DNA of 5,355 nucleotides from Escherichia coli (lineage in GTDB: Bacteria > Pseudomonadota > Gammaproteobacteria > Enterobacterales > Enterobacteriaceae): the NCBI RefSeq assembly GCF_003334255.1, contig NZ_QOWU01000105.1; one strand, given 5' to 3'. The position numbers and the translations under genes are program-made. Every line of letters begins with the position of its first letter. The first letter of the stretch is position 1. The notes under the pieces were generated by a model. It ran no database searches. It was not told where the DNA came from and saw only the letters and a list, made by a program, of their open reading frames with translations. Shown here in pieces: positions 1-5,354 of the stretch.

Positions 1-105
1 AGTTATCGTGAGAGTAATTCATCGGCACGTTAAATCATATCAGGCGTAATACCACAACCCTTAAGTTAGCGCTTATGGGATAATTCCCCGGTTTTTTTAC
101 GCCTG

Positions 106-2503: not shown

Positions 2504-2579
<76 letters not shown>

Positions 2580-2611: not shown

Positions 2612-2640
2612 ATCATATGAATTCCGCCCGAATGTGTCAA
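2612..2640 (-). promoter_or_regulatory. Stable-RNA-type sigma70 promoter for tRNA-Ala (TTGACA - 17 nt - TATGAT, with GC-rich discriminator)
   Basis: Reverse complement of 2612..2640 reads TTGACA cattcgggcggaattca TATGAT, followed by GCCGCCC. That is a perfect consensus -35, 17-nt spacer, 5/6 -10 and the GC-rich discriminator typical of stringently controlled rRNA/tRNA promoters. The predicted start is about 25 nt upstream of the mature tRNA 5' end at 2579. Confidence 0.55.
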
Positions 2641-2750
2641 CGGCAAATTGCAACGTGTAGTTTCAATCGCTGAAAAATCAGGCAAATGAACAATTTTGGA
2701 AAACCGCTCGCATTCAGTAGTTATTCATGTCACGGTTTCCTGTAAAGTGG

Positions 2751-2759
2751 TGTTATAAA
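2751..2759 (+). promoter_or_regulatory. Candidate extended -10 promoter element for yfeC-yfeD (TGtTATAAA)
   Basis: Plus-strand 2751..2759 reads TG t TATAAA, an extended -10 (TGn + 5/6 match to TATAAT), about 55 nt upstream of the yfeC ATG. There is no good -35 at 16-18 nt spacing, which an extended -10 can tolerate. Sequence match only. Confidence 0.3.
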
Positions 2760-2814
2760 ATGAACTACTAATAGACCCACATACATTCAGGGAATTGTTA
2801 TGTTCAAGGAGAGG

Positions 2815-3159
2815 ATGACACCAGATGAACTTGCCAGACTGACCGGCTATAGCCGCCAGACCATTAATAAATGGGTACGCAAGGAAGGCTGGACAACGTC
2901 ACCAAAACCTGGCGTCCAGGGTGGCAAAGCCCGACTGGTTCACGTCAATGAACAGGTTCGTGAATATATTCGCAATGCTGAACGTCCAGAAGGTCAGGGA
3001 GAAGCGCCTGCCCTTTCTGGTGATGCGCCGCTTGAAGTATTGCTGGTGACACTGGCGAAAGAGATGACGCCAGTTGAACAAAAACAGTTTACATCCTTGC
3101 TTCTGCGGGAAGGGATTATCGGATTGTTACAACGCTTAGGGATTCGCGATAGCAAATAA
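2815..3159 (+). CDS. yfeC: YfeC, small putative DNA-binding protein (DUF1323-type, HTH-like N-terminus), function uncharacterised
   Basis: ORF 2800..3159 in the track. The protein MTPDELARLTGYSRQTINKWVRKEGW... has an HTH-like N-terminus (ELARLTGYSRQTINKWV) and clear paralogy to the downstream ORF. I place the start at ATG 2815, preceded by AAGGAG at 2806-2811, giving 114 aa as I recall for E. coli YfeC. An alternative in-frame ATG at 2800 (preceded by AGGGA at 2789-2793) would add MFKER. Stop TAA at 3157-3159. Confidence 0.8.
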   Translation: MTPDELARLTGYSRQTINKWVRKEGWTTSPKPGVQGGKARLVHVNEQVREYIRNAERPEGQGEAPALSGDAPLEVLLVTLAKEMTPVEQKQFTSLLLREGIIGLLQRLGIRDSK

Positions 3160-3160
3160 T

Positions 3161-3553
3161 ATGAAAAGATTACGCAATAAAATGACCACCGAAGAACTGG
3201 CTGAATGCCTCGGTGTGGCTAAACAAACTGTTAACCGTTGGATCAGAGAAAAAGGCTGGAAAACGGAAAAATTTCCCGGCGTGAAAGGCGGTCGTGCCAG
3301 ACTTATTCTGGTCGATACGCAAGTTTGCGAGTTTATTCAGAACACGCCAGCCTTCCATAACACACCAATGTTGATGGAAGCTGAAGAGAGAATTGCTGAA
3401 TACGCTCCTGGAGCACGCGCCCCGGCGTATCGACAAATCATCAACGCGATAGATAATATGACAGACATTGAGCAGGAAAAAGTCGCGCAATTTTTGTCAC
3501 GTGAAGGAATTCGCAATTTCCTCGCCCGTCTCGATATTGACGAATCAGCATAA
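3161..3553 (+). CDS. yfeD: YfeD, small putative DNA-binding protein, paralog of YfeC, function uncharacterised
   Basis: ORF 3161..3553 (130 aa) starts 1 nt after the yfeC stop (taa t ATG), suggesting an operon with translational coupling. The N-terminal region MTTEELAECLGVAKQTVNRWIREKGWKTEKFPGVKGGRARLILVDTQVCEFI is about half identical by eye to YfeC MTPDELARLTGYSRQTINKWVRKEGWTTSPKPGVQGGKARLVHVNEQVREYI. The C-terminal REGI..L.RL.I segment is also shared. Stop TAA at 3551-3553. Confidence 0.85.
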   Translation: MKRLRNKMTTEELAECLGVAKQTVNRWIREKGWKTEKFPGVKGGRARLILVDTQVCEFIQNTPAFHNTPMLMEAEERIAEYAPGARAPAYRQIINAIDNMTDIEQEKVAQFLSREGIRNFLARLDIDESA

Positions 3554-3558
3554 ATAAA

Positions 3559-3596
3559 AAACGGCAGGATATTATCTCCTGCCGTTTATCTTTTTA
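3559..3596. terminator. Bidirectional rho-independent terminator between convergent yfeD (+) and gltX (-)
   Basis: Perfect 9-bp stem ACGGCAGGA (3561-3569) / TCCTGCCGT (3577-3585) with a 7-nt loop. It is flanked by an A-tract (aaataaaaaa, 3552-3560) on the left and a T-rich tract (ttatcttttt, 3586-3595) on the right, so either strand yields hairpin plus U-tract. It sits 5 nt after the yfeD stop and about 10 nt after the gltX stop. Confidence 0.7.
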
Positions 3597-3604
3597 CACG
3601 CTAA

Positions 3605-5020
3605 TTACTGCTGATTTTCGCGTTCAGCAATAAAATCCAGCGCTTTGTTGATACGCTCGATACTGCGGGTCTTACCAATTGCGTGAACGGTAACATCCAG
3701 TGCTGGAGACTGCCCCGCACCGGTTACGGCGACACGCAGCGGCATACCAACTTTACCCATACCCACTTCCAGCTCATCCGCCGTCGCCTGAATAGCGTGA
3801 TGAACGTTTTCAGCGGTCCAGTCAGTAATCGCGGCCAGTTTGTCACGAACCACTTCCAGCGGCTGACGCGCTACCGGACGCAGATGTTTTTTCGCGGCGT
3901 CGGCATCGAACTCAGCAAAATCTTCGTAGAAATAACGGCAGCTCTGTGCCATCTCTTTCAGCGTCTTGCAGCGTTCGCCCAGCAGTTTCACCAGATCAGC
4001 CAGCTGCGGGCCGTTACGGGTATCGATATTTTCCTGCTCAATGTGCCACTGTAAGTGAGTAGCAACATACTCCGGCGGCAGCGCGTTAATGTAGTGATGG
4101 TTCAGCCACAGCAGCTTGTCGGTGTTGAACGCACTGGCAGATTTGCTGACGGCATTCAAAGTGAAGTATTTGATCATCTCTTCACGAGTGAAGATTTCCT
4201 GATCGCCGTGGGACCAGCCCAGACGCACCAGATAGTTCAGCAGTGCTTCTGGCAAATAACCGTCATCACGATACTGCATTACGCTGACTGCCCCGTGACG
4301 TTTGGACAGTTTTTTACCGTCATCGCCATTGATCATAGAAACGTGCGCGTAAACCGGCACCGGCGCTTTCAGGGCCTTAAGAATGTTGATCTGGCGTGGC
4401 GTGTTGTTGATATGGTCTTCGCCACGGATAACGTGGGTGATTTCCATATCCCAGTCATCGACAACCACACAGAAGTTATAGGTTGGGGAACCATCGGTAC
4501 GGCGGATAATAAGATCGTCCAGTTCCTGGTTGCTGAACTCGATCGGACCACGGATCTGATCGTCAAAAACAACAGAACCTTCCTGCGGGTTAGCAAAACG
4601 TACAACACACGGTTCATCATCAGCATGATGCTCATGGCTGTGGCGGCAGCGACCGTCATAACGCGGCTTCTCACCTTTCGCCATTTGCTCTTCGCGCAGC
4701 GCTTCCAGGCGCTCTTTAGAGCAATAGCATTTATAAGCAGTGCCCTCTTCCAGCATCTGATCGATCACCGCGTTGTAGCGATCAAAACGTTTGGTCTGGT
4801 AGTACGGACCTTCATCCCACTCCAGGCTCAGCCAGTTCATGCCATCCATAATGGCTTCGATAGCTTCCGGCGTGGAACGCTCAAGATCGGTGTCTTCAAT
4901 ACGCAGCACGAACTCACCGCCGTGGTTACGTGCAAAAAGCCAGGAGTAAAGAGCAGTACGCGCGCCGCCAACGTGCAGATAGCCTGTTGGGCTTGGCGCG
5001 AAGCGAGTTTTGATTTTCAT
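3605..5020 (-). CDS. gltX: Glutamyl-tRNA synthetase (GluRS), class I aminoacyl-tRNA synthetase
   Basis: Minus-strand ORF of 471 aa, [49 protein letters not shown]... It has the class I HIGH-type motif (HVGG), the KMSKS-type motif (KLSKR), and a Cys/His cluster (YKCYCS ... GRCRHSHEH) consistent with the known zinc-binding site of E. coli GluRS. Start ATG at 5018-5020, stop TAA at 3605-3607. The sequence matches E. coli GltX as I recall it. Confidence 0.97.
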
Positions 5021-5278: not shown

Positions 5279-5354
5279 GGGTGATTAGCTCAGCTGGGAG
5301 AGCACCTCCCTTACAAGGAGGGGGTCGGCGGTTCGATCCCGTCATCACCCACCA
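5279..5354 (+). tRNA. valU: tRNA-Val (anticodon UAC), 76 nt with encoded CCA; first gene of the valU tRNA operon
   Basis: GGGTGATTAGCTCAGCTGGGAGAGCACCTCCCTTACAAGGAGGGGGTCGGCGGTTCGATCCCGTCATCACCCACCA. It has an acceptor stem GGGTGAT/ATCACCC, D-arm GCTC/GAGC, anticodon stem CCTCC/GGAGG with loop CTTACAA (anticodon TAC), T-arm GGTTCGATCC and a 3' CCA. It matches E. coli tRNA-Val(UAC) from memory. Confidence 0.95.

Follow-up and report, generated by a model that had tools for sequence, protein, structure and literature searches.

The genes yfeC and yfeD of Escherichia coli probably constitute a two-gene core operon for paralogous regulators related to the repressor c of phage Mu, with translation of the two genes coupled and the products dimerising through C-terminal helical hairpins. 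According to this proposal, the operon would provide the Enterobacteriaceae with two small transcription regulators of the PF07037 family, each of which would bind DNA through an N-terminal winged helix-turn-helix (HTH) domain of the MerR/excisionase/Mu-repressor type that is joined to a two-helix hairpin by some 25 variable, disordered residues. The hairpins would pair, most likely into a four-helix bundle, and the resulting dimers would read inverted repeats of the TTC...GAA type. Since databases and one ChIP-exo study already cover the two genes, the family to which they belong and the binding of their products to DNA, the finding of paired paralogs as originally described adds little. New here are the observations that the tandem, tightly joined yfeC-yfeD pair is a fixed feature of the Enterobacteriaceae and is represented outside that family by a single copy, and that PF07037 appears to be a shortened remote homolog of Mu repressor c in both of its domains, a kinship held with moderate confidence for the C-terminal part.

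The window, that is, the whole stretch of 5,355 nucleotides analysed, corresponds to the E. coli pdeA / tRNA-Ala / yfeC / yfeD / gltX / tRNA-Val locus. As stated in the preliminary description, the pair lies between tRNA-Ala(GGC) (2504-2579, minus strand) and the genes gltX (3605-5020, minus strand, convergent with yfeD) and tRNA-Val (5279-5354, plus strand); tRNA was the sole Rfam match in the window. The upstream and more conserved paralog, yfeC, occupies 2800..3159 on the plus strand and encodes 119 aa from the ATG at 2800, and the downstream, faster-evolving paralog, yfeD, occupies 3161..3553 on the same strand and encodes 130 aa, both being open reading frames with a PF07037 match. A second ATG at 2815, the start annotated in K-12, would yield a YfeC of 114 aa. 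The RefSeq call for this contig is 360 nt, and codons 3-5 (K-E-R) undergo synonymous changes between genera (AGG to CGG or CGA), which shows that they are translated; judged from the sequence, the start at 2800 is better supported than that of the 114-aa form.

YfeC and YfeD are aligned by BLASTP over 123 columns at 39% identity (E 6e-27), with about 28 of the first 54 alignment columns identical and a C-terminal block, REGI..(L/F)L.RL.I, common to both, which bears out their earlier reading as paralogs with similar N-terminal HTH and C-terminal REGI segments. When YfeC and YfeD of the same genome are compared across 88 genomes, their winged HTH domains are 51% identical and their C-terminal parts 40%, but their linkers only 14%, so the central linkers had rightly been called unrelated. 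Both proteins match PF07037 ('YfeC-like', formerly DUF1323) over the full length of the model (1-122), YfeC with residues 6-118 (E 4.5e-51) and YfeD with residues 8-129 (E 1.1e-63), and all 20 aligned relatives match the family too. The assignment to DUF1323 is therefore correct; the view of this family as essentially uncharacterised is outdated, since ChIP-exo sites for both proteins and the transcriptome of a yfeC knockout have been published.

In the AF2 model, a winged HTH of MerR/excisionase type is connected by a disordered linker to a helical hairpin. The predicted winged HTH of YfeD covers residues 8-61 (3182..3343, plus strand) in the order strand, helix, helix, two wing strands and helix, and that of YfeC, placed by alignment to the YfeD model, covers residues 6-59 of the 119-aa form (2815..2976, plus strand), carries the wing motif PGVQGGKARL, matches MuA I-alpha (1tns) and shows a mean pairwise ortholog identity of 86%. 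As far as a model can tell, both the topology and the structural likeness to solved members agree with a MerR/excisionase winged HTH, in line with the likeness originally noticed in the N-terminal module, and the DNA-binding fold on which the regulator proposal depends is thus predicted. The linker of YfeD, residues 62-87 (3344..3421, plus strand), is variable in the alignment and predicted to be disordered, with pLDDT below 50 at residues 75-83 and only E76 and Y81 nearly invariant. The C-terminal hairpin of YfeD, with predicted helices at residues 88-98 and 102-123 (3422..3529, plus strand), is delimited by AF2 models, by a match of residues 89-127 to PHROG 3037 ('transcriptional repressor') and by hhalign to Mu c 100-134. 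Its counterpart in YfeC, residues 77-115 (3028..3144, plus strand), aligns to the same segment of Mu c and is the putative dimerisation module. When the C-terminal hairpins of YfeC and YfeD were fused by a linker and modelled by AF2 from a paired alignment of 48 sequences, they formed a bundle with a pTM of 0.67 and helix pLDDT of 80-91 (helices 3-13 and 16-37 of the YfeC hairpin, pLDDT 80-90), a construct in which the fusion forces contact and which represents the hetero pair only. Searched against the PDB with Foldseek, the fused hairpins returned no match.

The family as a whole may be regarded as a truncated relative of Mu repressor c that corresponds to residues ~13-134 of Mu c and lacks the last ~60. 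In a search of PDB sequences with the PF07037 family profile, MuA I-alpha (1tns) ranked first (E 4.8e-5) and the DNA-binding domain of Mu c (1g4d) second (E 0.027). Comparison of the PF07037 and Mu c families by hhalign gave a probability of 97.5% (E 7.5e-12, 113 columns), the N-terminal part alone reached 97.1%, and the C-terminal part alone scored 28.1 (E 2.9e-5, probability 74%), whereas 30 shuffles of the columns scored 19.5 at most. In the opposite direction, an HMM of Mu c matches YfeC-like proteins at 27-38 bits in a single collinear domain (Mu c 16-134 to YfeC 5-111). PHROG 7148 and 3037, which include Mu c, and PHROG 310, which includes MuA, are weakly matched by YfeC and YfeD, the match of YfeC to PHROG 7148 having an E of 0.008. 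The entries used for the comparison with Mu c and MuA were PF02316, PHROG 7148 and 310, and PDB 1qpm/1g4d and 1tns. Pfam PF02316 (HTH_Tnp_Mu_1) itself matches YfeC at E 0.048, does not list YfeD and reaches E<=0.001 in only one of 20 family members, the excisionase-type HTH_17 fits the N-terminal domain no worse, and Foldseek, run with the YfeD model on viral structure models, found only generic excisionase/MerR-type HTH matches, none with E below 6e-3; the Mu link hence rests on profile comparisons. No paper on a link to phage Mu was found in the literature on DUF1323/PF07037 and yfeC.

Like YfeC and YfeD, Mu c is a repressor-type DNA binder in which a winged HTH whose wing carries the motif W..(K/R)..GVKGG(K/R)A, seen also in MuA I-alpha, is followed by a variable linker and collinear helices, with Mu c 100-134 (LEPDEARKALKLLSKGGLLALM) corresponding to MTP.EQ.KL..LL.REGI.GLL in the family. 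However, Mu c extends for ~60 further residues (135-196), whereas YfeC and YfeD end at the equivalent of Mu c ~134-140; the stretch they lack includes the protease-sensitive tail of Mu c. The residues of the recognition helix are not alike either (SRQTINKWVRKEGW vs SVAGVHYRANVQGW), and the Mu c gene stands at a prophage end beside ner and transposase genes, whereas yfeC and yfeD are core chromosomal genes without ner, A or B. The mobile-element origin that had been floated for the pair consequently stands in part: a remote and nearly full-length Mu c homolog is indicated by the profiles, but the present locus shows fixed synteny and contains neither an integrase nor att-like repeats within the window. 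Moreover, a tblastn search of 50,697 phage records with YfeD gave nothing below E 0.1, and YfeD matched 14 plasmid records, of which those bearing the pair resemble mis-filed chromosomes or chromosome fragments, so that these searches of plasmid and phage records disclosed no true plasmid or phage copies of yfeC/yfeD. Kinship with the Mu repressor would offer a concrete origin hypothesis, in which the direction of transfer between phage and host is one that we infer, as well as a template for operator binding and oligomerisation. A bolder scenario, which we consider improbable, holds that a Mu-like repressor was captured beside gltX before the Enterobacteriaceae/Yersiniaceae split and duplicated into a coupled, asymmetric heteromer, with YfeC reading the DNA and YfeD acting as a dominant-negative or anti-repressor-like modulator; more remote still is the version in which the pair continues to interfere with operators or enhancers of Mu-like phages.

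The arrangement of the pair is stable across the Enterobacteriaceae. A genome scan, with search patterns biased towards YfeD, yielded 107 matching stretches, and in 79 of 80 species-level loci a YfeC-type gene was followed, on the same strand, by one of YfeD type. The conservation that the preliminary description had proposed to check is thus confirmed, and the two genes, far from being routinely apart, are tightly joined. Upstream of the pair lies tRNA-Ala (80 of 82 loci) and downstream a convergent gltX (72 of 82); the same tandem layout recurs in the more divergent members Cedecea, Cronobacter and Entomohabitans, and the locus is present in 5426/5426 complete E. coli genomes. A single copy adjoins gltX in Chimaeribacter (Yersiniaceae) and in one metagenomic contig, and the copy in this Yersiniaceae relative indicates that one old duplication gave rise to the yfeC-yfeD pair. 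Presumably, a single copy stood beside gltX before the Enterobacteriaceae and some Yersiniaceae diverged, and a single tandem duplication would then have produced a conserved YfeC and a fast-diverging YfeD. In a neighbour-joining tree, YfeC and YfeD each form one clade, with longer branches for YfeD, and E. coli orthologs share 83% (YfeC) and 70% (YfeD) identity with those of Salmonella and 72% and 47%, respectively, with those of Klebsiella. In Escherichia sp. MOD1-EC7003, yfeC has lost 231 bp from its interior, whereas yfeD is intact. Three tandem copies of the family occur in one genome.

The stop-start junction, TAA-T-ATG at 3157..3163 on the plus strand, consists of the yfeC stop codon (3157-3159), a 1-nt spacer (T) and the yfeD ATG at 3161. 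Ahead of yfeD, even the best anti-Shine-Dalgarno duplex is weak (-3.6 kcal/mol) and poorly positioned (spacing 13 nt), in agreement with the initial observation that yfeD begins 1 nt past the yfeC stop with no usable Shine-Dalgarno sequence; this says little alone, because the duplex of gltX is similarly weak (-3.7). In 79 of 80 Enterobacteriaceae species genomes the junction measures between -20 and +10 nt with a mode of +1, and it is exactly +1 in 43 loci (a count that includes the window and the loci L001 and L002), a tightness that supports the joint expression proposed for the two genes. Translation of yfeD is probably coupled to that of yfeC, in that ribosomes finishing at the stop codon of yfeC would go on to translate yfeD. 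The pair would be transcribed from a promoter just 5' of yfeC, for which a predicted extended -10 element, TGnTATAAA, can be read at 2751..2759 (plus strand), ~41 nt 5' of the ATG at 2800. The corresponding block TG(c/t)TATAA(a/c) upstream of yfeC is kept in 11 of 13 aligned genera; the predicted promoter has no recognisable -35, and a consensus promoter scan did not call the site. Transcription would end at a bidirectional intrinsic terminator hairpin at 3559..3587, which has an 11-bp stem and T runs on both strands and is common to yfeD and the convergent gltX.

Binding of both proteins to DNA in vivo has been described by ChIP-exo (Gao et al. 2021; PMC8464067), with 50 sites for YfeC and 36 for YfeD, a YfeC motif of TTC-rich inverted repeats, repression of 16 of 20 direct targets, and a YfeC homodimer suggested by SWISS-MODEL. 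The strongest YfeC peaks contain TCCGGAA-like palindromes. The two published site lists have one position in common, 3332954, which may be a hot spot because a YciT site adjoins it. After coordinate conversion, the peak assigned to yfeC falls at the 3' end of the tRNA gene alaX, ~390 bp 5' of yfeC, and not at the yfeC promoter. The conversion uses an offset between NC_000913.2 and.3 that we take to be 1978 bp, a value consistent with how other peaks lie relative to the genes after which they are named. The only repeats detected 5' of yfeC in a search for an operator-like inverted repeat are non-conserved and lie inside the tRNA-Ala promoter region, and the sequence lent no support to autoregulation. 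In the published yfeC knockout transcriptome, yfeD mRNA is raised 20-fold, which could reflect read-through from the deletion cassette rather than lost autorepression. In addition, the ChIP-exo strains carry C-terminal 8xmyc tags inserted by lambda Red, which probably disturb the putative dimerisation hairpin and the expression of yfeD; the YfeC and YfeD regulons may therefore need re-measuring. In the yfeC strain the tag is attached to the hairpin and separates yfeC from yfeD, and for this reason the non-overlap of the YfeC and YfeD sites may be an artefact.

These data bear directly on the choice of dimerisation partner. A YfeC:YfeD heteromer is plausible in light of the fused model but is not established, given the scant overlap of the ChIP site sets and the loss of yfeC alone in one species genome. 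An obligate heteromer held together by the C-terminal hairpins, with coupling setting a 1:1 ratio, would account for the tight junction in nearly all species genomes (79/80), for the retention of both copies since a single old duplication and for the conservation of the hairpin motif REGI..LL.RLGI in YfeC and YfeD. It would also suit the pTM of 0.67, obtained with a fusion that forces contact, and the C-terminal tags might explain the disjoint ChIP sites. Such a strict dependence nevertheless seems rather unlikely to us, given that the lists of 50 and 36 sites meet at one possible hot spot, that Escherichia sp. MOD1-EC7003 keeps an intact yfeD beside a deleted yfeC, that single-copy relatives must function without a partner, and that one genome harbors three tandem copies. 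Two independent homodimeric regulators with different targets, whose adjacency is an inherited operon structure, are a tentative possibility of somewhat better standing, which draws on the nearly disjoint ChIP-exo site sets, on strongly asymmetric evolution (E. coli-Klebsiella identities of 72% for YfeC and 47% for YfeD) and on the homodimer suggested by SWISS-MODEL (PMC8464067). However, the recognition-helix regions are very alike (RQTINKWVRKEGW vs KQTVNRWIREKGW), and no difference in specificity is evident from them; the ChIP data carry the caveat of the C-terminal tag, and independence fits poorly with a junction that has remained tight across long evolutionary distances.

Other readings deny the pair its place as a Mu-c-related regulatory operon and can be set against the same evidence. 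In the in silico survey RASTA-Bacteria (2007), yfeD/yfeC was ranked as a high-confidence toxin-antitoxin pair, a label repeated in a TraDIS paper, and the locus does resemble type II systems in consisting of two small genes joined stop to start, of which one encodes an HTH protein like many antitoxins. The partners in such systems are unrelated and one is a toxin, whereas YfeC and YfeD are paralogs of equal DNA-binding architecture, neither with a toxin fold; their locus is a fixed syntenic core (~80 species, and every complete E. coli genome) rather than patchy, the records searched hold no true plasmid or phage copies, yfeC deletions are viable despite high yfeD expression, and the PADLOC result is a generic MADS1 HTH match only. 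The toxin-antitoxin reading is thus close to refuted. Nearly as improbable is the suggestion that the proteins are relic excisionases of a degraded island once integrated at the neighbouring tRNA genes: the presence of tRNA genes on either side is suggestive, but integrase and att-like repeats are lacking from the window, the conserved flanks contain no integrase-like ORF either, the housekeeping flanks are the same in ~80 species, and no members stand beside integrases among the 107 matching stretches and the contigs examined, as excisionases do. Furthermore, the conserved C-terminal domain that matches Mu repressor c, with its hairpin, is absent from excisionases, the genome-wide binding and regulon data suit a transcription factor, and the excisionase model TIGR01764 reaches 27.7 bits, below its cut-off of 28.8. 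To the small MerR-like winged-HTH proteins with a separate oligomerisation module (BldC, RacA, pSK1 Par) and to excisionases (Pukovnik Xis, TorI, Tn916 Xis), YfeC and YfeD show sequence similarity only at the level of generic HTH profiles. In RacA and pSK1 Par, as here, a winged HTH is paired with a C-terminal helical region, which in them serves oligomerisation.

Identification as a canonical MerR regulator was considered and rejected. MerR proteins belong to the same broad winged-HTH superfamily as YfeC and YfeD, but in them the HTH is followed by a long antiparallel coiled-coil and an effector-binding domain, whereas AF2 shows a disordered linker of ~25 residues, a short hairpin and no domain beyond it; Pfam MerR_1 gives only E 0.24 for YfeC and 0.32 for YfeD, and stays above E 0.001 for every family member. 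In RefSeq, YfeC of K-12 is named a dual regulator, and YfeD is listed under the product name MerR family; this label, like that of a toxin-antitoxin system, should not be trusted for the two proteins. The members from Chimaeribacter are labelled 'HTH Mu-type domain' in UniProt.

YfeC and YfeD are encoded by adjacent plus-strand genes, yfeC at 2800..3159 and yfeD at 3161..3553, in a locus identified by a six-frame ORF list, a tRNA scan and megablast against complete E. coli genomes. The two proteins align by BLASTP at 39% identity (E 6e-27), with a conserved N-terminal block, then unlike middles and a common C-terminal REGI..LL.RL.I block, and both are full-length members of the Pfam family PF07037 'YfeC-like' (formerly DUF1323). 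The tandem paralogs, 1-nt junction (TAA-T-ATG), shared ends, unrelated central linkers and DUF1323 membership of the preliminary description are thereby confirmed. The size of YfeC requires revision. K-12 annotation starts the gene at ATG 2815 and gives 114 aa, the approximate length in the preliminary description; the first ATG yields 119 aa. Both start codons are kept in 12 of 13 aligned genera (the first is GTG in Cedecea), and the Lys-Glu-Arg codons between them vary synonymously across genera (AGG to CGG or CGA), a pattern that makes the 119-aa form the better-supported product; the gene itself and the 130 aa of YfeD stand. Upstream of yfeD, the strongest anti-Shine-Dalgarno pairing is -3.6 kcal/mol at 13-nt spacing, but this weakness alone proves little, because the pairing of gltX is no better.

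The arrangement is strongly conserved, as the tandem proposal anticipated. A scan of one genome per species (100,044 species) gave 107 matching stretches, and the best 80 of these are all from Enterobacteriaceae, including Escherichia, Salmonella, Citrobacter, Enterobacter, Klebsiella, Raoultella, Kluyvera, Kosakonia, Leclercia, Lelliottia, Trabulsiella, Yokenella, Pluralibacter and others. By a family HMM on six-frame ORFs, 79 of these 80 loci have a YfeC-type gene immediately before a YfeD-type gene in the same orientation. Stop-to-start distances in the kept loci range from -20 to +10 nt, none larger, and the junction is exactly +1 in 43, among them the window and the compared loci L001 and L002. 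tRNA-Ala is found upstream of the pair in 80 of 82 loci and convergent gltX downstream in 72 of 82. Among more divergent cluster representatives, Cedecea, Cronobacter and Entomohabitans carry the pair at the equivalent position, though separated by 19 nt (Entomohabitans) or 47 nt (Cedecea). Within the species, the yfeC-yfeD segment is matched in all 5426 complete E. coli genomes, with at least 80% of its length covered in 5249. Coverage of the tRNA-Ala-to-gltX segment falls below 80% in about 177 of the 5426; in one matched genome, E. coli 14EC001 (NZ_CP024127.1), an IS1A insertion divides this match into two pieces.

Departures from the pair are few and varied. In Escherichia sp. MOD1-EC7003 (L006:4669-5000), a deletion of about 231 bp takes out the central part of yfeC (corresponding to window 2829-3059) and leaves yfeD intact, a natural loss of yfeC only; yfeC is split in one scanned genome. 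Enterobacter sp. BIGb0383 (L069:4216-5387) carries three tandem YfeC-like genes with successive 4-nt overlaps at ATGA-type junctions, copies 2 and 3 being YfeD-like. Single copies occur outside Enterobacteriaceae in Chimaeribacter (Yersiniaceae), where one YfeC-like gene is convergent with gltX within a shared mntH-nupC neighbourhood, and in a metagenomic contig (GltX 74% identical to that of E. coli), where one copy adjoins gltX, tRNA-Val and tRNA-Lys. In a neighbour-joining tree, the upstream copies form a short-branch clade and the downstream copies a separate long-branch clade, with the single-copy proteins near the YfeC side. YfeC orthologs are 83% (Salmonella) and 72% (Klebsiella) identical to E. 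coli YfeC, and the corresponding YfeD values are 70% and 47%. These comparisons are most simply read as a single tandem duplication, in which a gene already resident beside gltX was copied and the copies then diverged asymmetrically. The PF07037-type family has few members: among 1.84 billion cluster representatives searched with its profile, 234 match at E <=0.001 and only 16 at E <=1e-30, and the listed matches with E of about 1e-16 to 1e-5 are mostly unrelated proteins with repeated HTH units.

The AlphaFold2 model of YfeD, built from a 20-sequence alignment (mean pLDDT 80), comprises a strand (residues 7-9), two helices (10-17 and 21-31), two wing strands (35-37 and 47-50), a third helix (53-61), a low-confidence linker (62-87) and a helical hairpin (88-98 and 102-123). 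The N-terminal domain is thus predicted to be a MerR/excisionase-type winged HTH, in agreement with the original guess. Canonical MerR membership fails; Pfam MerR_1 is reached at E 0.24-0.32 only, and in the model the YfeD HTH lacks a following coiled-coil helix or effector domain. In the linker (YfeD 76-81, window 3386-3403), one Glu and, five residues on, one Tyr are near-invariant in both paralogs (consensus AAEP.A.Y), and this constancy within a variable, predicted-disordered segment suggests a short functional motif.

Beyond this fold class, the profile comparisons point to repressor c of the transposable phage Mu (Mu c). In a plain sequence search of PDB chains, the best match of YfeC is the I-alpha domain of the MuA transposase (1tns), with which it has the wing sequence GW...R.GV.GGKA in common; the family profile raises 1tns to significance (E 4.8e-5), followed in second place by the Mu c DNA-binding domain (E 0.027). 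Aligned profile to profile, the family and a set of aligned Mu c relatives match (probability 97.5%, E 7.5e-12, 113 columns) with YfeD 4-122 paired to Mu c 13-134, a span that takes in the HTH as well as the C-terminal helices. The C-terminal part alone is collinear with Mu c 100-134 (score 28.1, E 2.9e-5, probability 74%), against a maximum score of 19.5 in 30 column-shuffled alignments. In the reverse direction, a Mu c family HMM matches YfeC-like proteins at 27-38 bits, each time as a single domain (Mu c 16-134 versus YfeC 5-111) and with the highest scores for single-copy proteins. Mu c belongs to PHROG 7148 and matches PHROG 3037 more weakly; YfeC weakly matches PHROG 7148 and the MuA family PHROG 310, and the C-terminal part of YfeD matches PHROG 3037. 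In UniProt, Chimaeribacter members already carry the name 'HTH Mu-type domain-containing protein'.

The YfeC-like family accordingly appears, from these alignments, to be a remote homolog of Mu-type repressors in truncated form, with membership withheld because, of 20 relatives, a single one matches the Pfam Mu-domain model at E <=0.001, HTH_17 (excisionase type) suits the N-terminal domain equally well or better, and Foldseek against viral models gives no specific match. Compared with Mu c, YfeC and YfeD lack the final ~60 residues, differ in recognition-helix residues and are encoded outside any prophage. No homolog was found among 50,697 phage records at E <0.1, plasmid records with the pair are apparently mis-filed chromosomes or chromosome fragments, and a literature search found a yfeC-phage Mu connection in no paper. 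The mobile-element origin proposed earlier gains a concrete candidate from the profile matches and is still speculative.

The genes and their family are known from previous work, as is the DNA binding of the products, and the earlier view of the pair as essentially uncharacterised is outdated. Both proteins have been validated by ChIP-exo, with 50 sites for YfeC, whose motif consists of TTC-rich inverted repeats spaced by 6 nt, with 16 of 20 direct targets repressed, and with 36 sites for YfeD (Gao et al. 2021, PMC8464067). The K-12 RefSeq product name of YfeC is now 'DNA-binding transcriptional dual regulator'. Several of the six strongest YfeC peak regions retrieved from K-12 contain TCCGGAA or TTTCGGAAA-like palindromes. 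By far the strongest (signal-to-noise 2057, ten times the next) includes TCCGGAAG; its converted coordinates place it between chaB and chaC, whereas the paper gives chaA as the nearest gene (PMC8464067). The mukF peak includes TTTCGGAAACTTCCGGAA, and those at selU/allS and yajI contain related CCGAAA elements. Separate reports on yfeC mutants describe raised extracellular DNA release in one, poor colonisation of the neonatal rat small intestine by another, and unaffected LEE expression in an EHEC mutant. The toxin-antitoxin pair predicted by RASTA-Bacteria in 2007 lacks support, since the genes are paralogs of one DNA-binding family at a fixed core locus.

Co-expression of yfeC and yfeD, as first proposed, holds, given the tight conserved junction. 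Upstream of yfeC, a conserved TGnTATAAA block (2751-2759) could plausibly serve as an extended -10 element, with no -35 element evident in the sequence. The other conserved intergenic sequence is part of the divergent tRNA-Ala promoter (TTGACA - 17 nt - TATGAT, 2612-2640, minus strand), which is conserved across genera. A conserved block, caatcgctgaaaaa.ca.gcaaa, lies further upstream of the latter (within 2612-2690, minus strand). Promoter and block are arranged divergently to the putative yfeC promoter, at a distance of about 110-140 bp. A bidirectional terminator (3559-3587) ends the operon. The published YfeC peak labelled 'yfeC', once converted (NC_000913.3 2518030-2518063, window ~2493-2526), lies not at the yfeC promoter but ~390 bp ahead of the gene, over the terminator and 3' end of tRNA alaX. 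Spurious ChIP signal is known at highly transcribed tRNA genes, so this peak may be an artefact. In a yfeC knockout, yfeD mRNA rises ~20-fold, which could reflect lost autorepression or read-through from the cassette.

Whether the two proteins act as an obligate heteromer, an extension of the complex once suggested, is a separate question, and the answer is probably negative. The conserved junction, the retention of both paralogs and their common hairpin motif would suit such a complex, as would an AlphaFold2 model of the two C-terminal hairpins fused through a 20-residue Gly/Ser linker (paired alignment of 48 species; pTM 0.67, helix pLDDT 80-91), in which a four-helix bundle is predicted, the pTM being above expectation for independently placed hairpins. 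However, the covalent linker itself promotes hairpin packing, and the model covers the YfeC-YfeD pairing alone; moreover, yfeC alone has been lost in one species genome, and single-copy relatives function without a partner. The site lists of YfeC and YfeD have only one position in common, where a third regulator binds alongside. Yet the tags in the ChIP-exo strains were C-terminal (8xmyc, introduced via lambda Red). In the yfeC strain such a tag would occupy the putative dimerisation hairpin and also intervene between yfeC and yfeD, which makes the non-overlap weak evidence.

The flanks comprise pdeA (yfeA; within 106-2412, minus), tRNA-Ala(GGC) (2504-2579, minus), gltX (3605-5020, minus, convergent with yfeD) and tRNA-Val (5279-5354, plus), both tRNAs located by the tRNA scan. 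K-12 MG1655 is 100% identical to the window from base 55 on, except in tRNA-Ala copy number: the window has one unit, whereas a tandem of two (alaX and alaW in K-12) is present in K-12 and nearly every other Enterobacteriaceae locus, leaving the window short of one 115-bp unit. All of the best-matching complete genomes align in broken form here, each in at least two segments, so that either a rare variant or a tandem collapsed during assembly may explain the single copy. Window positions 1-54 do not align to K-12, where IS186C occupies the position, and match strains annotated there with an IS4-like IS421-family transposase. The mechanical pdeA ORF (106-2412, minus) runs to 768 aa from a GTG at 2412, versus 729 aa for annotated PdeA, which starts at window 2295.
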